The notes below the pieces were generated by a model, which saw only the letters and a list, made by a program, of their open reading frames with translations, searched no databases and had not been told where the DNA came from. This document shows, in pieces, positions 122-11,977 of a stretch of DNA of 11,977 nucleotides. The stretch is taken from assembly GCA_964002605.1 (NCBI GenBank), contig CAXFGY010000030.1:1-11977 (forward strand), in the 5' to 3' direction. Position numbers and translations under genes: made by a program. Position 1 is the stretch's first letter. Every line of letters begins with the position of its first letter. The stretch is from an uncultured Candidatus Marinamargulisbacteria bacterium. GTDB taxonomy: Bacteria > Margulisbacteria > Marinamargulisbacteria > GCA-2716485 > CAXFGY01.

Positions 122-1867
122 TTATTTCAAACTTTTATCATTTTTTTGTTTTTCAAACAAATAATTAAGTTTTTTTTGTTGCGCTTGCAATTGTCTTGTT
201 CTCATATTCAATACTTTATTGGTTTTTAACAATTCTTTCTGTAACTCTTTGAGAGACTGACTAATCACTCTCTTGGGATACAAATCATAATATAAATAAT
301 CCACCTTCTCTTGCTGCGTTTTAACTAATTCTTTTTCATTAAAAATGATATCTTGTTTTTCTTTTAATTGAGCCTGATAATTATTAATATTGTTTTTTTC
401 TTTTTTGATTGCAATCACAATCTTTTCACGTTTTACTTTTGAATCATTAATTTTCTTTCTAATTTCAATTTTATTTTTAACTGATAAAACGGACCTATTC
501 GATTCGTATTGCTTTTTGTTAGCGAGTAATTGCTTCTGCTCTTCGTTTTTTAACTGATATTTTTTTTCATAAGTCCTAATACTATTTTGCGACCGTTGCA
601 ATAATTTCTTTAATTTAGTTATTTGCCGCTGACCTTTTATTTGGCGCCTTAACAACCTATTTAACTCTTTTTTTTCAACTTTTAATAACATTTTCAACTT
701 TTTCCTATCTGCCTTCAATTGACTATCTCGAATACTTTTTTGACCTTCACTTATCAGCTTTAACTGTATTAATTTACTTTTGGTTCTACTGAATAACGCT
801 GATATCGTTTGCTGATATGCGTCTATTTTTTTGATTTTTTTCTTATACCCATTTATTGCTGCTTCTGTTGACTTTATTTTTTTTGAAATACCCAATTGAC
901 TTTGCTTATATCTTGTTTTTCTTTGATTAAATAAACTTAAGGAAATATAGTGCATCTTGTCGTAATAAATTACTCCTGTCTGCTCATAGGCATAACTCAA
1001 CTTAATCCCTTTAACTTTTAAATTTAATCCTACTGATTTTCGCATTACTGTTTCATCTAAATGCAACATGGTACGCAAACCAAACAATCCTTCAATATAA
1101 GGGAAATGTTGATGTTTTATCGCAATTCCAGCTGCATAAAATAAGGGATATTTTTCGTACTGAGTTAACTGAAAATGAATTGATGATTCTATATTTTTGT
1201 AATTGCTTTTTTTAGAGCTATTAATAAACAGTTTAAATGGCAAGTCCTCCCCTGACCGACCATCAGAATATCTCATATTTAATCCTGGAAATATGTTATG
1301 AACTCCAACTCCTAACTGATATCCAGACTTAATAAAATATACCCCAAAGTCACTATTGATTCCTTGTCCAACAATATTATATATTTCTGAATGCAGTATT
1401 TTTATTGATGCGCCTAAACTAATATTTTGCAGAAGTGCCATGCTTCCCGCCACATAATACTTACTATTATAATATGAATAAGGGGCTGCTGAACTCAAAA
1501 TAATATTATTAACTGCTGAATTATTATTGTTTATTGTTGTTTGTTGAATTCCTTTGATACCTAACGCTGCATAACCCAGTCCGATTACAAAGTTTTTGTA
1601 CGATTGGGATACACTAAGGTTTTGGACTGATACATCCTGAATGGTTGTTGTATAAAAGGTATCAATAGACCACTTAACTTGATGGTCTAATTGTGCTGGA
1701 TTTACAAATACAGCCTGTGCGGTTTTTAAATTTGAATTAATTCCACCCAATGCAATTGACTCAGCAGATACCCCTAAATCTGTTATATCAAGTATGTTTT
1801 CAGCTTTTGACTGAATTGCTAAAATACTGACTATGATAAATATACAAATACAATCACTAAACTTCAT
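122..1867 (-). CDS. Outer-membrane beta-barrel protein (copy A) with a FadL/PorV/PorP-like N-terminal plug motif. It is a paralog of the 7849..8814 gene. It also carries a ~265-aa Lys/Gln/Glu-rich predicted coiled-coil C-terminal extension.
   Basis: The N-terminus is a signal peptide (MKFSDCICIFIIVSILAIQSKA). The motif DITDLGVSAESIALGG...NPAQL aligns with the FadL-family hatch pattern S-x4-A-x2-G-x4-A-x2-A-x5-NP and is shared nearly verbatim with the 7849..8814 protein. The two proteins are collinear for ~315 aa. Strands alternate and the barrel ends ...HYISLSLF, a terminal aromatic as in OM barrels. After that comes K/Q/E-rich low-complexity sequence. An RBS GAGGA sits 4 nt upstream of the ATG at 1865-1867. 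The gene begins 24 nt downstream of the 1892..3382 gene. Confidence 0.6.
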   Translation of the reverse strand: MKFSDCICIFIIVSILAIQSKAENILDITDLGVSAESIALGGINSNLKTAQAVFVNPAQLDHQVKWSIDTFYTTTIQDVSVQNLSVSQSYKNFVIGLGYAALGIKGIQQTTINNNNSAVNNIILSSAAPYSYYNSKYYVAGSMALLQNISLGASIKILHSEIYNIVGQGINSDFGVYFIKSGYQLGVGVHNIFPGLNMRYSDGRSGEDLPFKLFINSSKKSNYKNIESSIHFQLTQYEKYPLFYAAGIAIKHQHFPYIEGLFGLRTMLHLDETVMRKSVGLNLKVKGIKLSYAYEQTGVIYYDKMHYISLSLFNQRKTRYKQSQLGISKKIKSTEAAINGYKKKIKKIDAYQQTISALFSRTKSKLIQLKLISEGQKSIRDSQLKADRKKLKMLLKVEKKELNRLLRRQIKGQRQITKLKKLLQRSQNSIRTYEKKYQLKNEEQKQLLANKKQYESNRSVLSVKNKIEIRKKINDSKVKREKIVIAIKKEKNNINNYQAQLKEKQDIIFNEKELVKTQQEKVDYLYYDLYPKRVISQSLKELQKELLKTNKVLNMRTRQLQAQQKKLNYLFEKQKNDKSLK

Positions 1868-1891: not shown

Positions 1892-3382
1892 TTACTTTTT
1901 ACGCGGTATTACTCCTAATTTTGTTTTATGAACGACTTCTCCAGCTAACACCAATAAAATACTATATCCACCAACAGCCATATGATGAAACTCATCACTC
2001 AAAACTGTTATTTCACTATACCAATAGGTACTATCCTGATAATTTACTAAATTACCTTTTTGAAATGCTTCTTTCTTAACATGTAACTGCCCTAACATAT
2101 CAAATATATACACGATAAACCTTGCATCATCATTAATTTGATTGCCATAATATAGACCCAGCCGCAAGTCCTCTCCTTGTTCAATTGGGCTTGGATAAGC
2201 ATAAAAATGGTCAACCCCAGTATTATGAACTTCTGTAGTATCCAGTCCTTTATTTTCTTCAAAAATATGTCCTTGTGAATATAGCTGACTCAGATTCCAA
2301 CTACAATTTAATGCTGTTTCTGGTAACGTAACATGATCAAATTTGCCAATAATTTCTGTAAATTCAAATAACTGATAACTTCGGTTGCAAACTGATTCAG
2401 ATTCATTTAAGGGATCTGATTGAGACATTAGTATTGCTTGATTTATACTCGCATTTACAAGTGTCCCCTTTTTTTCTTCTTCATTTTCAATCATTAACTT
2501 GCCCCCATGGATCTGTAACCGATACCCAGAAACCAGGCTATTTAGCGGCATTTTTAATTGTGCCTCAGCAGCAACAATCAACTGCCCTTCCCCTTCTATT
2601 TTTACATTGATATTTGCAACTGATTTTAATATTCCTTTCTCTATTTCTAAACTTTTATTCACTATTGGTGTTTCAACAAATAATTGGCCTGCCTGCAATG
2701 TTATTTTGTTTGCTGTTTCCTTAATTTTAGTTTCTTGATTTAAAACGTTATCCCTTAATAATATTTGAATTGCACTATAATTATTAATGACTAACTCTTT
2801 TGCTTTTTGCTTTTCATGTTCATTATCAAACATACTTTTATCTACCCATTCTAATAGTATATTTGGAATATTTTCATTATCTGTTAAAAAATCACCCCAA
2901 TTAACTTTATCTGTAATTTTTAATTTATCTAATAAATCAATAATTTCTTTTCGAGACGCTTTAGTTATTTCACTTGGCAAATCATAATATTGGATAGGCG
3001 TCTGAAATGTCCCGGATGGCATTATTAATTTCCCTTCATTATCTACAATACTTACGGCACCTTGTGCTGAAGAAATTGTAGTCGTTTTTCCATTAAATAG
3101 TTCTATGGACTTTGTGATCTCCCCCTTTTTTTTAATCTCAATATTTCTTTGTTGAACCGCTTCTTTAATCGTCTGTTGAACAGGTTTTGTTAATGGATCT
3201 ATTTCATCAATAAGATAACGATCATTCCTATATTTAATTGGATCAAGTAAGTCAGTATTCGTCACAACTGCTTTACCAGTCAATTCAACACTATACAAAA
3301 ACCCATCAATAGTTCCTAAAAAATTAGACCCCATTAATAACGATACTATTAAACATCTTAAAACACGATAACTAATTATCAT
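1892..3382 (-). CDS. Secreted protein (cargo copy A, 496 aa). Its C-terminal ~430 aa are homologous to the C-terminal module of the large 8841..11977 protein. It lacks the repeat array. The last ~100 aa resemble a T9SS-type C-terminal sorting (CTD) Ig-like domain.
   Basis: The N-terminal signal peptide is MIISYRVLRCLIVSLLMGSNFLG. Collinear similarity to the large protein runs through MPSGTFQTPIQYYDLPSEI~MPKTKGEIISVYDFPETI, then CNRSYQLFEFTEIIGKFDHVTLPE~CSQSYTLFEFSTINGNFDEVKLPE, then CSWNLSQLYSQG~CSWNLSELYTQG. The CTD-like tail is YPSP...FIVYIFDMLGQLHVK...FHHMAVGGYSILL...GEVV...KLGVIP. Confidence 0.6.
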   Translation of the reverse strand: MIISYRVLRCLIVSLLMGSNFLGTIDGFLYSVELTGKAVVTNTDLLDPIKYRNDRYLIDEIDPLTKPVQQTIKEAVQQRNIEIKKKGEITKSIELFNGKTTTISSAQGAVSIVDNEGKLIMPSGTFQTPIQYYDLPSEITKASRKEIIDLLDKLKITDKVNWGDFLTDNENIPNILLEWVDKSMFDNEHEKQKAKELVINNYSAIQILLRDNVLNQETKIKETANKITLQAGQLFVETPIVNKSLEIEKGILKSVANINVKIEGEGQLIVAAEAQLKMPLNSLVSGYRLQIHGGKLMIENEEEKKGTLVNASINQAILMSQSDPLNESESVCNRSYQLFEFTEIIGKFDHVTLPETALNCSWNLSQLYSQGHIFEENKGLDTTEVHNTGVDHFYAYPSPIEQGEDLRLGLYYGNQINDDARFIVYIFDMLGQLHVKKEAFQKGNLVNYQDSTYWYSEITVLSDEFHHMAVGGYSILLVLAGEVVHKTKLGVIPRKK

Positions 3383-5687: not shown

Positions 5688-6854
5688 ATGCTTAATCGAA
5701 TACCACTTCAAGAATTAAAAAAACCCCGCTTGCTTAGTGTGGTACCGAACACAAATACAGCTAATCAACTTTATCGCTCCTGGCCTACAAATTTAGACAG
5801 TACAAGGCCTTATGCGACACAGCCGCCACCCCTACTAGACACTTCAAAATTTTGTAAAAAAATGCAGAAATTTTTAACTATAATGGAGATTAACCCAAGT
5901 ACGCTTAAATTAAGCGACCCCTATACTAAAAATAATATCGAAATGATTAAAAATATTTTACAGCAACCGCCTTGTCATATCCCTTCTAATGAAATATCTA
6001 TTGCGACCCACCCTGGACCTCATAAAACGGATAATGAGGATTGTATTTCTGTCATACACCCCCCTGACATACCGGAAATAAAAGCTATTATTTGTACTGA
6101 CGGTGTCAGCATAGGACTTCCCAGAACGCCATTTGAAAGAAATGAAAATGGAATTGCTGCTTCTAACTATATTAATAATCAACTGGGTATATGGATTAAT
6201 TCAGATGCATTCAAAACCATATTTTACGAATTAATAAATCAAGACAAATCAAAATACGATCGTATTTCAAAGTTTTTTGAAGATGTAACGAACGCAGTCC
6301 AAAAAATTGCTAAGAATATTTATCCTAAAAATAGTTCCACTACTCTTGAACTGACGTTTTTAGTTCAATATGAAAATCAAAATTATGTATTTGCATTTTC
6401 TTGGGGAGACTCTAGTACTTTTATTTATAAAAATAAAATTACTGTACCACTAAATGTGTATTATTATAACAATGTTACACAGTTAAACACTGGATATAAT
6501 ATTTTCTTTGAAAAAAACTTTTTAAATGCCTCCATAAAGTCATCCGACCCAGAAGACCCCGGTGCAGTGATCAATGCTCATGATGCATACCGACAAAAAC
6601 CATCTTTAACTATTATGCCAATAAATGACGGAGATACCGTTATCATTGCAACTGATGGATATATCGATAATTTAAGTAAAACCTGCCCAAATGATCCATC
6701 AAAAATACTATTTCAAACCGATTTAGCTGGTAAACTTATTACATTATGTGATGAACTTAATATTAAAGATAGAGCGTCCTTGATTGCATCTGTTTGCGGG
6801 GTAATTAGAGAAAAACCAGATGATATTACAGTGGCAGTAGTACCACCGCAGTAG
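5688..6854 (+). CDS. Divergent PP2C/PPM-family Ser/Thr protein phosphatase-like protein with a Pro-rich N-terminal region. The exact start is uncertain.
   Basis: Five PPM motifs occur in the right order. Motif 1 is GPHKTDNEDCISV (R..NED). Motif 2 is ICTDGVSIG (DG.GG-like). Motif 5 is FAFSWGDSSTFIY (GDSR-like). Motif 8 is IIATDGYIDNL (SDGL.D-like). Motif 11 is DDITVAVV at the C-terminus (DNITVIVV-like). No obvious SD lies upstream of 5688. The next in-frame Met is residue 59. Confidence 0.55.
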   Translation: MLNRIPLQELKKPRLLSVVPNTNTANQLYRSWPTNLDSTRPYATQPPPLLDTSKFCKKMQKFLTIMEINPSTLKLSDPYTKNNIEMIKNILQQPPCHIPSNEISIATHPGPHKTDNEDCISVIHPPDIPEIKAIICTDGVSIGLPRTPFERNENGIAASNYINNQLGIWINSDAFKTIFYELINQDKSKYDRISKFFEDVTNAVQKIAKNIYPKNSSTTLELTFLVQYENQNYVFAFSWGDSSTFIYKNKITVPLNVYYYNNVTQLNTGYNIFFEKNFLNASIKSSDPEDPGAVINAHDAYRQKPSLTIMPINDGDTVIIATDGYIDNLSKTCPNDPSKILFQTDLAGKLITLCDELNIKDRASLIASVCGVIREKPDDITVAVVPPQ

Positions 6855-6943: not shown

Positions 6944-7834
6944 ATGGCTCAAACTGTTAATTTTAATTCTGATATGTTCAATAAACTTTCTAAATATATT
7001 CCTATACTATTTATTATTATTCTTTTACTCCCTGCTTCATTTGTTATTATTGATGCAGGCAAAGTAGGCGTTGTTAAACGACTGGGTGCTGTTCAACCGC
7101 TTTCTTTACCTGAAGGCTTTCACCTTAAAATCCCTTTTGCCGATCAGATTATTAAAGTTGATGTTAGACTAATGAATAGTCGCTCTAATGCGCTCTCTTC
7201 TTCCAAAGATTTACAAACTGTTCGTACAACAGTTGAAGTTCAATACTCTATCAATGGGACAATGGCACCTTACACCTATCAAAAAGTGGGTCTTAACCGC
7301 CAAATTCAAGCCCGTGTTATTGAACCTGCCATTGGCGAATCTGTCAAAGCCGTTACTGCCCAATATACTGCTGAAGAACTCATTACAAAGCGTGGCACTG
7401 TCAAACTCCAAATTCAAGGGGCTATTCAAAACTATATTAATGCAACATTAGAAAAGAAAAAGATTAAAGAAGGCATTGAAATTGCTAATGTTGCGATTAC
7501 TGACTTTAATTTCTCTGATGAGTTTAATCGTGCAATTGAAATGAAAGTAAAAGCGGAACAAGAAGCACTACAAGCTAAAAATGAAAAATTAAAACGAATT
7601 ACTCAAGCTGAAGCGGCTGCCTCTGAAAAACAATTGGCTGCTGATGCTTCTGCCTATGAAATTTCTGTCGGATCTAAAGCGCGAGCTGATGCAATTAAAC
7701 GTGAAGCAATGGCATTACGCAACAACCCGGAATTAATCCAACTACGAATCGCTGAAAAGTGGGACGGTAAACTCCCTCACTTTAACGGTAGCGATGCTGT
7801 GCCTTTATTGAATATTAATCCCAAACAAAATTAA
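6944..7834 (+). CDS. SPFH/band-7 domain protein of the prohibitin/HflC-like family, with an N-terminal membrane anchor.
   Basis: A TM segment (YIPILFIIILLLPASFVIIDA) is followed by the SPFH core GKVGVVKRLGAV...LKIPFADQIIKVDVR...LQTVRTTVEVQY. The C-terminal part is an Ala/Glu/Lys-rich coiled coil (KAEQEALQAKNEKLKRITQAEAAASEKQLAADASAYE) typical of prohibitins. A strong RBS AAGGGAG at 6931-6937 lies 6 nt before the ATG. Confidence 0.85.
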   Translation: MAQTVNFNSDMFNKLSKYIPILFIIILLLPASFVIIDAGKVGVVKRLGAVQPLSLPEGFHLKIPFADQIIKVDVRLMNSRSNALSSSKDLQTVRTTVEVQYSINGTMAPYTYQKVGLNRQIQARVIEPAIGESVKAVTAQYTAEELITKRGTVKLQIQGAIQNYINATLEKKKIKEGIEIANVAITDFNFSDEFNRAIEMKVKAEQEALQAKNEKLKRITQAEAAASEKQLAADASAYEISVGSKARADAIKREAMALRNNPELIQLRIAEKWDGKLPHFNGSDAVPLLNINPKQN

Positions 7835-7848
7835 TCATTTATTTTATT

Positions 7849-8814
7849 CTAGTGATGAACACTTCTTTTTTTACTAAATAAACTTAAAGAAAAATAATGC
7901 ATCTGGTTATACATATGCGCATTGCTACTCTCAAACGCATAGCTAAATTTAATTCCTCTAACCGTTAAATTGAGCCCTACTGATTTACGCATTATTGTAT
8001 CATCTAAATGTAATACACTACGTGTACCCAGTAACCCTTCAATATAAGGAAACCCCTGATACAATATCGTTGCTCCGCCTGCATACAACAATGGACTTGC
8101 CTTTGATTTATTAAGCTGTAGATGAAACTTTGACTCTATTCTTTTAAACACTACTTTTTTAGTCCCATTAATAAAAAGCTTTAATGGCAGCTCTTCATCC
8201 ACATAACTGGTCCCACTTGCATCACTGTAATTCATTTTGAACATTGGAAAAATATTATGGATACTAACTGCCAATTGATAACTAGGTTTAATATATTGTA
8301 AGCCAAAATCACTATTAAACCCTTTACCCGATATCGTCTCTAATGTTGTGCTGAACCATTTCATTGATCCGCCTACAACAATATGATCCAACACTTTATA
8401 ACTTGTTCCAAAATATAGCGTATCATAACTATATGAATATGAATCAGGGGATCTAACTACTTTTTTACCTGTTAAACCATCTTCTTGACTTGTTTTTGGG
8501 ATGTCATTCATTCCTGTTCGTGTCCAACCTAAACCAAAAGAATATAATTTATAAGCCTTCGATAGGCTGATATTTTGAATATTTACATCCTCAATCGTAT
8601 TCGTATGAAATGCATCTGCTGACCAATTCAGCGTATTATCCAGGAATGATGGATTGATAAAAATTGCATGAGCTGTTTTTGCACTTGAATGTGATCCACC
8701 AAGAGCAATAGACTCTGCCGACACACCAAGGTCAGTCACATCAAACGCAACTTCTGCATATAATGATATTGTCATTATCATTATTCCGCTAATTATTTTT
8801 ATTAAAAATCTCAT
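7849..8814 (-). CDS. Outer-membrane beta-barrel protein (copy B, 321 aa), paralog of the 122..1867 barrel without the Lys-rich tail. The plug motif is FadL/PorV/PorP-like.
   Basis: The signal peptide is MRFLIKIISGIMIMTISLYA. The motif DVTDLGVSAESIALGG...NPSFL is shared with copy A. Similarity is collinear over the full length, for example KLFINGTKK~KLFINSSKK, RKSVGLNLTVRGIKFSYA~RKSVGLNLKVKGIKLSYA and MHYFSLSLF~MHYISLSLF. An RBS AAGGGGG (plus 8821-8827) lies 6 nt upstream of the ATG. The gene begins 26 nt downstream of the large cargo gene. Confidence 0.6.
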   Translation of the reverse strand: MRFLIKIISGIMIMTISLYAEVAFDVTDLGVSAESIALGGSHSSAKTAHAIFINPSFLDNTLNWSADAFHTNTIEDVNIQNISLSKAYKLYSFGLGWTRTGMNDIPKTSQEDGLTGKKVVRSPDSYSYSYDTLYFGTSYKVLDHIVVGGSMKWFSTTLETISGKGFNSDFGLQYIKPSYQLAVSIHNIFPMFKMNYSDASGTSYVDEELPLKLFINGTKKVVFKRIESKFHLQLNKSKASPLLYAGGATILYQGFPYIEGLLGTRSVLHLDDTIMRKSVGLNLTVRGIKFSYAFESSNAHMYNQMHYFSLSLFSKKRSVHH

Positions 8815-8820
8815 TTTTTA

Positions 8821-8827
8821 CCCCCTT
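8821..8827 (-). promoter_or_regulatory. Shine-Dalgarno AAGGGGG for barrel copy B. The position suggests translational coupling or co-transcription with the upstream cargo gene.
   Basis: The reverse complement of plus ccccctt lies 6 nt before the ATG at 8812-8814. The gap to the upstream stop is only 26 nt. Confidence 0.65.
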
Positions 8828-8840
8828 GGTTGACCAACAA

Positions 8841-11800
8841 TTAGTTTTTAGTAGTTGGCTTTACTCCTAATTTTATTCTTCTAATCACTTCACCATCTTT
8901 TTCTATAATTACACTATAAGCTCCCACTGACATATGATGAAATTTAGTTGAATCAATTTTTATTTCATGATAGTAGTAACGTTCTTGTGTATTATCGATA
9001 TTAAATTCTGTTCGGTTAATCATTCCTCCATTTAATTCTTGGATATCTTTAACATGTAATCTACCCAATATATCAAATATATATATTGTAATTTCATGTG
9101 AGCTATCTTTTAAATCTGATCCAAAATAAATTGCGACAGTTAGTTCCTCTCCTTGAGGTAAAGGACTAGGATGAAGAAGGATTTCTTGAATTCCCCCGCC
9201 AGCAATATTACTAGCAACTTGAACATCATTGCTTTCTTGATAAATAATTCCTTGTGTATATAATTCACTTAGATTCCAACTACACCCTTCTTCTGCTTCA
9301 GGTAGTTTGACTTCATCAAAATTACCATTAATAGTTGAGAATTCAAATAATGTATAACTTTGACTACATTCTGTTTGACTAGAATGACCTGAATCTAATA
9401 TAGACATCATAATCGATGCATTTATATCTGAACTTTTAGATAGTGTACCACCTGTTGTTGTTGATGACTCATTACTATCAATTAATAATATCCCTCCATC
9501 AATCGCTAAGGTATTTCCTTTAAGCGTATTATTCAATGATAATTTAAGTTTAGAACCTGGTCCTATTTTTAATAAAGCGCCTACTTTTATTTCATTTTTA
9601 GCGGAGGACATCTTTAATGTTCCTCCATCTAAGCTAACACTTTTACTGCTTGATGATAATTCTAAGCTCCCTTGCTTTAAAGCAACCTGATCACTCGTTT
9701 CAGATACTTTTGTTGTTCTACTAATTACTTTTCCAGTTAATACTTCTATAATATCTTCATAATAATTAGACATTAAGTTAATCGCTTGATCTTTTTCTGT
9801 TTTTGTAAATGTTTTATTGTCTAATATTAACGCTGTTAAAGTATCATTATTTGGAATTGCATCAATATCATTAATGATTGAAGATAAATAACCGTCTTTA
9901 GTTAATTGGACTTTCTCTAACATATTGATAATTCCTAATCTTGTACTATTATTTTTAGTGTCTATTGTTTCTGGGAAATCATAAACACTTATTATTTCTC
10001 CTTTGGTTTTAGGCATACTCACTAATTCACTCGTTTCTGGATCCATTCCCAATGTACCTTCAATTGTTTTTGATGTTGTCAGCACACCGTTTATAGTCTG
10101 TACTTCTGTTGTTATTCCATCACTGATCTGAATTGTTTTTCTTTCAATAACAACGCCATTTGAATCTTGTTTTTCTGATGATGTTATCTCTGTAGTCGGA
10201 TCCCAAGTATTAATTGTTGTTGTGACTATATTTTTATTATTATCTTTTTCTAATATAGTAACACTATTTCCTGCCGTAATTTCTTCTGTAATATTGATAG
10301 TAACGCCATTACTATCTTGTAACACTGTTTCTATGCTATTTCCAAGCGTTGTTTCTATCTCAATTCTAGTGATTTCATGAGTCATTGTCTTATTAACTTT
10401 TGTTGCAACCACTGTCCCATCGCTATGCTTTTCTGTCGTTACTTCTTGAATATTTAATGTAATTCCATTTGGTAATTTTTGAACTTTTGTTAATTTATTT
10501 CCAGAAACTATTTCAACTTCTATTCCCATGATATTTTCGTTACTTTTAACACCATTGTATATGGTTCGTGTCAACTTATTATTTGTTGATATTAATTCTA
10601 CTGTCGTTTTTAGAATAGTATCTTTGGTTTCTCCATACTCAACTTTTGTAGTCAAATTATTACTCACTACTGTTTCAATCCTACCAACCACTTTTCCTTT
10701 TTGGTTGATTTGTACTGATATTTCCTTTGACTGACTTGAATCAACTATATTTCCAATTTTTGATATTTGGGTTTGCTTTAATATTGCACTTATTCCAGGT
10801 TTACCCACATATATTGTTGTTAATATCTGACCGCCTATTTTTTCAACAACAATACTTTGGATAATATTTGTATCACTAATTTCCCCGCTATAAAATATAG
10901 TGGTTACTTTATTACCCTCTGTTACTTTAATCTCACTACTTAACACATTCCCATTAACATCTTTTTCTATTGTTGTAATCGTATTATCTATTTCTATTTC
11001 CTCTACTATACTCAGTATATCCCCCAGTGGGCTTTGTTTTACTGTTGTTATACTATTTCCAGATACCGTCACTTCAGTAATTCCTGTCATATTACTCATA
11101 TTAGTATCGCCATTATAATCTACTGTTATTTCAATATTTCCAGAAGTCGTTATTGATTGACTATTGATTATATTATCTAAACTGATACTGCCGTTATAAT
11201 ATTTAGTTATTATTGTATTACCTGATGTTATGACTTCTGTACTCCCTATAATAAAACTAGTGTTCACTGCTCCTGCATAATTAATAGTTTGAATACGATC
11301 CGATAATGTAATGACTTTAGTACTACTACTCAATTGCCCTAAATTGTCTTTTAATGTCGTTATTGTGATATTATCTGAAGTTAAAACTTCAATAACCTCT
11401 ATAAGATTACCTGTTCCATCTGGACCATCAAACCTCATTGTAGTTACTAAATTACCGGATGTAATTATTTCTTTACTTCCAATAATATTACCCTCGCTAT
11501 TTTGTACGTTTTCAATTTGACTATTTCCTGATGATATAACTTGTCTTACTCCACTTAAATTATCTGGACTCACTACACCTGTATAAACTGATACAGTTGT
11601 TGTATTTCCTGATGTCACTGTTTCTGTACTTTGTAATACTGAAACTGGGTTTCCATTACTATCTACCTCATATGTTGAATTAATCACTATTCCGTCTGGT
11701 TCAGTAGTGACAGAATCTATACTCACAACTTCTCCATTTTGATCAATTTGAGTTGTCGTTACTTGATTTCCATCACTGGATGTCGTTGCCACTGTGGTTC

Positions 11801-11977
11801 CCGTTGCGGTTGCACCAGTTGTATTTGGTAATCCTGTACTTGCATCCGTAGTCACTGAACCATCATAACTTGTTGTGGTCACGGTTCCGCCATCACTGGA
11901 TGTCGTTGCCACTGTGGTTCCCGTTGCGGTTGCACCAGTTGTATTTGGTAATCCTGTACTTGCATCCGTAGTCACTG
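8841..11977 (-). CDS. Large secreted or surface repeat protein (cargo copy B, more than 1044 aa). It is 5'-truncated by the window edge. From the N-terminus it has Thr-rich 40-aa tandem repeats, then ~20 copies of a ~28-aa TSGN beta-type repeat, then a conserved ~430-aa C-terminal module ending in a T9SS-CTD-like domain.
   Basis: The ORF is open to the window end; the track's initial M is only a GTG in an open frame. The repeat consensus is approximately (E/Q)VITSGNxITTxxYxGxxSxxNIIxS, recurring from about residue 100 to residue 650. The C-terminal module is homologous to the 496-aa protein. The CTD-like end is HPSPLPQGEEL...ITIYIFDILGRLHVK...FHHMSVGAYSVII...GEVIRRIKLGVKP. Confidence 0.6.
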   Translation of the reverse strand, partial: VTTDASTGLPNTTGATATGTTVATTSSDGGTVTTTSYDGSVTTDASTGLPNTTGATATGTTVATTSSDGNQVTTTQIDQNGEVVSIDSVTTEPDGIVINSTYEVDSNGNPVSVLQSTETVTSGNTTTVSVYTGVVSPDNLSGVRQVISSGNSQIENVQNSEGNIIGSKEIITSGNLVTTMRFDGPDGTGNLIEVIEVLTSDNITITTLKDNLGQLSSSTKVITLSDRIQTINYAGAVNTSFIIGSTEVITSGNTIITKYYNGSISLDNIINSQSITTSGNIEITVDYNGDTNMSNMTGITEVTVSGNSITTVKQSPLGDILSIVEEIEIDNTITTIEKDVNGNVLSSEIKVTEGNKVTTIFYSGEISDTNIIQSIVVEKIGGQILTTIYVGKPGISAILKQTQISKIGNIVDSSQSKEISVQINQKGKVVGRIETVVSNNLTTKVEYGETKDTILKTTVELISTNNKLTRTIYNGVKSNENIMGIEVEIVSGNKLTKVQKLPNGITLNIQEVTTEKHSDGTVVATKVNKTMTHEITRIEIETTLGNSIETVLQDSNGVTINITEEITAGNSVTILEKDNNKNIVTTTINTWDPTTEITSSEKQDSNGVVIERKTIQISDGITTEVQTINGVLTTSKTIEGTLGMDPETSELVSMPKTKGEIISVYDFPETIDTKNNSTRLGIINMLEKVQLTKDGYLSSIINDIDAIPNNDTLTALILDNKTFTKTEKDQAINLMSNYYEDIIEVLTGKVISRTTKVSETSDQVALKQGSLELSSSSKSVSLDGGTLKMSSAKNEIKVGALLKIGPGSKLKLSLNNTLKGNTLAIDGGILLIDSNESSTTTGGTLSKSSDINASIMMSILDSGHSSQTECSQSYTLFEFSTINGNFDEVKLPEAEEGCSWNLSELYTQGIIYQESNDVQVASNIAGGGIQEILLHPSPLPQGEELTVAIYFGSDLKDSSHEITIYIFDILGRLHVKDIQELNGGMINRTEFNIDNTQERYYYHEIKIDSTKFHHMSVGAYSVIIEKDGEVIRRIKLGVKPTTKN
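11770..11977. repeat. Perfect 120-nt (40-aa) tandem direct repeat inside the large cargo gene. It very likely continues beyond the window edge.
   Basis: 88 nt at 11770-11857 are identical to 11890-11977, which is the end of the window. The period is 120 nt. The encoded unit is TTDASTGLPNTTGATATGTTVATTSSDG plus ~12 variable residues. Confidence 0.9.

Follow-up and report, generated by a model that had tools for sequence, protein, structure and literature searches.

A divergent type-A-like sorting domain probably served by its own PorV/PorQ-like barrel in uncultured marine bacteria

The 11,977-nucleotide stretch of contig CAXFGY010000030.1 analysed here (hereafter the window; GC content ~31%) carries on its minus strand two gene pairs, each consisting of a cargo gene followed by a gene for an outer-membrane beta-barrel (Table 1). 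We focused on the C-terminal tail of the larger cargo, cargo 1. This tail is probably the domain by which a giant, adhesin-like surface protein is sorted and anchored, and the gene downstream would encode its private PorV/PorQ-like barrel, acting as both carrier and anchor. We consider this full reading the probable one, and we hold the underlying homology of tail and barrel to type IX secretion system (T9SS) parts to be correct with high confidence. The arrangement of a T9SS-type cargo with a cognate carrier is already known; here, a type-A-like tail goes with a private PorQ/V-like barrel, some of these barrels bearing long coiled-coil tails. These findings are not evidence for a new secretion system.

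An initial annotation of the window had described region 8844-9160 (residues ~940-1044 of the partial open reading frame 8841-11975) as resembling a T9SS type-A C-terminal domain (CTD), based on motifs common to both cargos. All of these motifs were found in both tails, ITIYIFDILGRLHVK, GAYSV and GEV....KLGVKP in cargo 1 and IVYIFDMLGQLHVK, GGYSI and GEV....KLGVIP in cargo 2, the (H/Y)PSP motif of cargo 1 occupying residues 935-938 (about 9161-9172), ~12 nt upstream of the start given in that annotation. In the AlphaFold model of the cargo 1 tail, the first strand lies at about residue 929, and the domain therefore spans about 8844-9197 rather than 8844-9160. The tail forms a beta-sandwich of roughly 118 residues (~105-118 aa in the window tails) and ends 2-8 residues short of the stop codon in both cargos. 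The cargos share a larger C-terminal region: ~440 residues align with 34% identity (E=5e-70), conservation being highest in the last ~180. Among curated hidden Markov models (HMMs), the type-A T9SS families gave the best or near-best match of both tails, always below cutoff. TIGR04183 (cutoff 23) scored 14.4 bits on the cargo 1 tail and 18.5 bits on full-length cargo 2 (15.9 on its tail alone), while PF18962 (gathering threshold, GA, 27) scored 19.8 bits on the cargo 1 tail and did not match the cargo 2 tail. The type-B CTD models TIGR04131, which the initial annotation had also brought into play, and PF13585 matched neither window tail, even at E<=10.

Relatives of the window tails bridge the gap to the curated models. 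A profile of the last 215 residues, run against 1.84 billion representative proteins, returned 31 matches at E<=1e-3, defining a rare tail family from uncultured marine bacteria; word-indexed homology searches returned 3, 1 and 4 matches. All contigs of the family come from marine metagenomes, including Tara Oceans, the longest measuring 27 kb. In the full-length matches, which include proteins of 1075-4510 aa, the tail stands at the extreme C-terminus. TIGR04183 matched 15 of 21 family tails (best E=5.3e-11) and PF18962 matched 12 (best E=4.7e-10); weak PF13585 matches occurred in three (best E=1e-4). Tails bearing the same signature as those of the window, YPSP ... IFDILGQLH ... K.GV.P, passed the curated TIGR04183 cutoff in P0011 (29.4 bits), P0014 (32.4), P0017 (33.0) and P0026 (25.7), as did YPNP forms in P0029 (42.4 bits), P0034 (32.9) and P0024 (25.9). 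A profile of the 16 closer tails, built without the module that precedes the domain, scored 36-47 bits on YPNP tails, against a maximum of 11 bits among 1200 shuffled controls. Hence the proposed match to T9SS CTD models holds at the level of the family, but not for the window tails taken individually.

Structure comparison showed that the tail is a seven-stranded Ig-like beta-sandwich resembling solved CTDs. Its matches include PorU (6za2_B; rank 2, score 11.0, 22% identity), the isolated mirolase CTD (8qb1_A; rank 3, score 10.7, 20% identity, 80/88 residues aligned with a root-mean-square deviation of 2.0), the NucA CTD bound in the translocon (8glk_D; rank 29, score 9.0, 23% identity) and PorZ (5m11_A; rank 32, score 8.9, 22% identity), a likeness that the initial annotation had suggested looking for. 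When the tail profile was searched against PDB sequences, the sole match, to phage p2 ORF16 (E=0.011), was at the level of chance. We conclude from family bridging plus fold, not from the window sequences alone, that the tail belongs, in divergent form, to the type-A CTD superfamily.

The barrels lead to the same secretion system. Barrel 1 and barrel 2 are 47% identical (E=1e-99). Barrel 1 matched the PorV/PorQ family model NF033709 (E=4.8e-13, 49.4 bits; cutoff 90) and the PorQ model NF033711 (E=7.9e-9, 35 bits; equivalog cutoff 220), and barrel 2 matched the PorQ model only (E=9.4e-10, 38 bits), all below cutoff. When seven family barrels were scanned, only T9SS barrel models were matched (PorV/PorQ family, PorQ, PorV2 and PorP; E 1e-9 to 2.5e-19), again under the 90-bit cutoff in all seven, with 49-70 bits for the relatives and the best value, 70 bits, for P0003. 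The PorP/SprF models (TIGR03519/PF11751) did not match the window barrels at E<=1; only P0003, a 43%-identical relative, passed PF11751 PorP_SprF (33.7 bits against a GA of 22.3). A type-B CTD/PorP-SprF reading of the window proteins was rejected, since none of these models matches their tails or barrels. The AlphaFold2 model of barrel 1, of moderate quality (predicted local confidence, pLDDT, 69; predicted TM-score, pTM, 0.67), has roughly 14-16 strands. Foldseek returned as its top PDB match the PorV chain of the F. johnsoniae translocon with bound substrate (8gl6_F, E=1.4e-10, TM 0.69), with PorV 6h3i_F at rank 3 and TodX and FadL next; the identity of the PorV chain was verified. Barrel profiles run against the PDB by sequence gave nothing credible. 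The N-terminal barrel motif SAE.IALGG ... F.NP is also present in a genuine PorV-family protein. The initial suggestion that each cargo has an adjacent FadL/PorV-like barrel was thus borne out.

These comparisons could be taken differently: the tail might be an Ig-like domain of the generic kind, and the barrel a channel of the FadL type for hydrophobic substrates, with no sorting relationship between the two. Foldseek matches of the tail are generic Ig/Fn3 domains, TodX and FadL are close second-best fold matches of the barrel, and every score on the window proteins is sub-threshold. However, mere coincidence accounts neither for family members above the TIGR04183 cutoff nor for a tail that is always at the extreme C-terminus, for T9SS families as the sole HMM families matched by the barrels, or for the conserved pairing and parallel divergence described below. 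Already largely refuted by the bridging, the pairing and the divergence, such a coincidence is barely credible.

To survey the pairing, local profiles were run over every related locus collected. Six distinct cargo genes with YPSP-type tails were found, from at least two organisms: those of the two window pairs, L005, L011 (a sister strain), L020 (a different organism, ~43% GC) and L021-23. Because it comes from the same samples as the window and has 30-34% GC, L021-23 is probably a third pair of the window's genome. Each of the six cargos is followed on the same strand by a barrel gene, whose start lies at -4 to +26 nt relative to the stop codon of the cargo, whereas two YPNP-type relatives have no adjoining barrel and are followed by dnaB instead. 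Pairwise identities of tails and barrels are correlated (r=0.93), a value reached by 1/720 permutations in an exact Mantel test. Tail and barrel have diverged in parallel, and the pairs were therefore inherited and duplicated as units. This parallel divergence fits, but does not prove, cognate specificity; together with gene adjacency, it indirectly supports CTD binding by the window barrels.

The strength of this pairing bears on the possibility that the window cargos are ordinary type-A substrates, recognised by a general PorV encoded elsewhere and cleaved by the PorU sortase, the adjacent barrels being, for example, PorQ-like parts of an attachment complex or nutrient channels. The tails do belong to the type-A family, related YPNP-type tails exist without an adjacent barrel, and the PorU model matches several family tails with its C-terminal end. 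Yet a shared function would not require one PorQ-like barrel per cargo, and the one-to-one adjacency is strict in six loci and two GC classes, with parallel divergence. We therefore regard ordinary cargos as unlikely.

Table 1. Coordinates of the cargo-barrel pairs and their parts in the window.
Feature	Coordinates	Strand	Description
C-terminal sorting/anchoring domain, cargo 1 (probable)	8844..9197	-	Residues ~927-1044; divergent T9SS type-A-like CTD
C-terminal sorting/anchoring domain, cargo 2 (probable)	1895..2218	-	Residues ~389-496; aligned with cargo 1
Cargo 1 (pair 1)	8841..11975	-	1044 aa, the 3' part of a giant, repetitive gene for a surface protein, from the open reading frame list; 5' end outside the window
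Barrel 1 (pair 1)	7849..8814	-	321 aa; PorV/PorQ-like beta-barrel of the outer membrane, 26 nt downstream of cargo 1; short basic C-terminal tail
Cargo 2 (pair 2)	1892..3382	-	496 aa, complete; shorter paralogue with signal-peptide-like N-terminus and the same 440-aa C-terminal architecture
Barrel 2 (pair 2)	122..1867	-	581 aa
Barrel 2, barrel domain	908..1867	-	Residues 1-320; 24 nt downstream of cargo 2
Barrel 2, C-terminal extension	122..907	-	~261 aa, 21% Lys, also Leu/Gln-rich; coiled-coil-like by composition
Pre-anchor module, cargo 1	9237..9368	-	Residues ~870-913; C..SYTLFEF..I.G.FD.V.LPE....C.WN.S.LY.QG

In the carrier-and-anchor reading that we favour, the cargo would be exported by Sec; signal-peptide-like N-termini were detected in the full-length cargos and in both window barrels by a simple hydropathy heuristic. 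At a T9SS-type translocon (SprA/Sov), the cargo's own barrel would then bind the CTD through its extracellular loops, after which the barrel-cargo complex would leave the translocon. The uncleaved CTD, kept non-covalently by the barrel, would anchor the adhesin on the surface, as in PorQ-PorZ, PorV-PorU and SprF-SprB. The barrels differ in the length of their C-terminal tail, which is 8 aa in barrel 1 and a Lys-rich coiled coil of ~260 aa in barrel 2 and L011. As it is fused after the last barrel strand, the extension of barrel 2 is expected to be periplasmic, and such variable tails may link the anchor to periplasmic structures. A separate gene for a 1003-aa Lys-rich coiled-coil protein lies directly after the barrel in L005 (1646-4657); neither this protein nor the barrel 2 extension matched any family. 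The coiled-coil part looks like a third module component that underwent gene fusion or fission.

Could the barrel dispense with the translocon? In a minimal system of two partners, independent of the T9SS, the PorV/PorQ-like barrel would by itself, or perhaps with the coiled coil, capture the CTD and export or anchor the adhesin in an organism devoid of SprA/Sov and PorKLMN. Some ~100 kb of related contigs showed no T9SS core gene, none of 185,579 species genomes belongs to the lineage, flagellar-stator-like genes, atypical of Bacteroidota, are present on the contig, and the family is very divergent and small. However, a FadL-like barrel of ~14-16 strands with an N-terminal plug has no known capacity for a folded passenger of more than 1000 aa, and all homology signals lead to T9SS parts whose function involves a translocon. 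Moreover, T9SS genes are normally scattered over the genome (PMC10202324), and their absence from short contigs therefore means little. A minimal system appears quite unlikely. We likewise hold as highly doubtful that the pairs are a self-contained surface-display apparatus of an unsampled, non-Bacteroidota marine lineage, in which a type-A-like CTD is captured, in the absence of canonical SprA/PorKLMN, by a PorQ/V-like barrel plus a long periplasmic coiled coil, the energy perhaps coming from a neighbouring orphan TPR/FliG-like/MotA/MotB operon. If true, this would constitute an independent evolutionary use of T9SS parts.

That operon was found in the 19 kb contig that continues beyond the window, followed by rho and tRNA-Thr(GGT). 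It lies past the low-coordinate end of the window, downstream of barrel 2 and on the same strand (L012, 12144-16311), and its genes, which overlap tightly, encode a TPR protein (431 aa), a FliG-like protein (480 aa) and two further proteins, one MotA/PomA-like, the other MotB-like (OmpA_C). Of the domains of FliG, the FliG-like protein has the middle and C domains only (TIGR00207, 74 bits; cutoff 227), and no domain was assigned to its N-terminal 258 aa. No other flagellar genes were found in the 19 kb, and the operon may be an orphan stator plus a FliG-like motor.

The scan of the species-representative genomes returned no member of the barrel family or of the YPSP-type tail family; the lineage appears to be represented solely by short contigs from metagenomes. 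Its sole match was a distant PorV-family protein (169.9 bits) in a metagenome-assembled genome of Ca. Neomarinimicrobiota (Fidelibacterota, FCB group). There (L007, 4687-10966 and 15554-16963), a gene for a 1044-aa TonB-dependent receptor is followed by one whose 700-aa product has a CTD-like C-terminus (VVPNPA ... GIYILLV ... KFVIIR) and then by the PorV-family barrel; a canonical YPNPFNP type-A CTD protein is encoded nearby. This locus is another cargo-then-PorV-like arrangement, and shows that T9SS-type parts occur outside Bacteroidota proper. The initial annotation had also inferred a gammaproteobacterial character from KARI, the ilvC product of the window. Its best PDB matches were 1np3 (460 bits) and 4xiy (453 bits), which we take to be the Pseudomonas and Azotobacter KARIs. 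Other short KARIs (~330 aa) scored 435-442 bits, within ~20 bits of these two, and the comparison therefore offers no discriminating margin. Of that earlier interpretation, the homology to T9SS parts and the private barrels stand, but the gammaproteobacterial taxonomy and a minimal system in place of the T9SS are not supported.

The passengers borne by these tails vary from pair to pair. A Pfam search for a passenger domain in cargo 1 found none, and none was recognised elsewhere in the window; cadherin and He_PIG domains occur in L011, and LamG and cadherin in P0010. The N-terminal part of the cargo 1 fragment (window ~11700-11975) contains a duplicated Thr/Ser-rich segment (TTDASTGLPNTTGATATGTTVATTSSDG). 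Every public assembly breaks inside the cargo 1 gene, suggesting repeats that defeat short-read assembly. Upstream of the CTD lies a pre-anchor module with two conserved Cys, kept in all family members. In P0031, a 2214-aa protein from the representative search, the module (LP....l.WDTS.LYTDGTL) precedes a PEP-CTERM-like end (VPEPASLALLAMGGLAILKHRN) and no CTD is present. It is therefore not tied to one anchor type, and appears to be common to different sorting systems. The sister strain offers a further comparison: L011 48-7295 and window 6944-11975 carry a near-identical SPFH gene with a different cargo and barrel beside it, the L011 cargo measuring at least 1466 aa and its 586-aa barrel, with the coiled coil fused, sharing 51% identity with barrel 1. 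Thus a hypervariable cargo-barrel cassette adjoins a gene that is conserved.

Between the two window pairs lie housekeeping genes, namely SPFH/Band 7, MarC, CbiX and ilvC, along with a weak PP2C-like gene (5688-6854, plus strand) whose 388-aa product resembles PP2C phosphatases below cutoff (PF13672, E=0.0019). Weak Pfam matches to DUF6941, MCM and POR were discarded as noise. Promoter and terminator scans gave no excess over shuffled expectation and are therefore uninformative on operon structure; Rfam and tRNA scans found only tRNA-Thr.

According to reviews, T9SS CTD proteins are restricted to Bacteroidota, and cargo-specific carrier barrels serve mainly type-B CTDs (PMC10202324, PMC12618676). 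Our data would extend the cognate-carrier principle to the type-A lineage, offer natural cognate pairs for the study of carrier-CTD specificity, and provide barrels with very long tails, expected to be periplasmic and usable to study how carriers are coupled to periplasmic structures. Four known systems are relevant. With FadL/TodX channels for hydrophobic compounds, the window barrels share the overall fold but no sequence-family match, all barrel HMM matches being T9SS barrels. Like canonical type-A cargos (TIGR04183/PF18962) served by a general PorV, the window cargos combine an N-terminal Sec signal with a C-terminal Ig-like sandwich of ~7 strands and the motif series (Y)P(N/S)P ... hydrophobic-(F/Y)D..G ... 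G.Y ... terminal K; they differ by YPSP in place of YPNP, by a 20-30-residue insertion between strands, by scores under the curated cutoffs, and by a private barrel instead of one shared PorV.

In type-B systems (SprB-SprF, PG1035-PorP and the Fjoh pairs), gene order is identical, a large adhesin gene preceding a private barrel gene: type-B cargo genes commonly have a cognate porP/sprF-like gene next to them, whose product carries and anchors the cargo (PMC12618676, PMC9143113). Substrates of the T9SS dock on the loops of the carrier while inside SprA, from which carrier and substrate are afterwards extracted as a complex (PMC10994853). In type-B carriers, the periplasmic C-tail is functionally important (PMC12618676, PMC9143113, PMC12635249), that of SprF joining the carrier to the moving track (PMC12635249). 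By contrast, the window tail is type-A-like, and the barrel tails carry no Cys-X-Cys motif. In the P. gingivalis attachment complex, the type-A CTDs of PorU and PorZ are retained, and PorV and PorQ serve as their anchors in 1:1 sub-complexes (PMC5562754); cognate PorV-like barrels have been proposed, in a review, to shield the CTD against cleavage (PMC10202324). PorZ and PorU are machinery, whereas the window cargos are giant, variable adhesin-like proteins, apparently with several pairs per genome and in strict gene adjacency, and their barrels score below the family cutoffs, some bearing long coiled-coil tails. By analogy, the window modules would work most like PorQ-PorZ or SprF-SprB.
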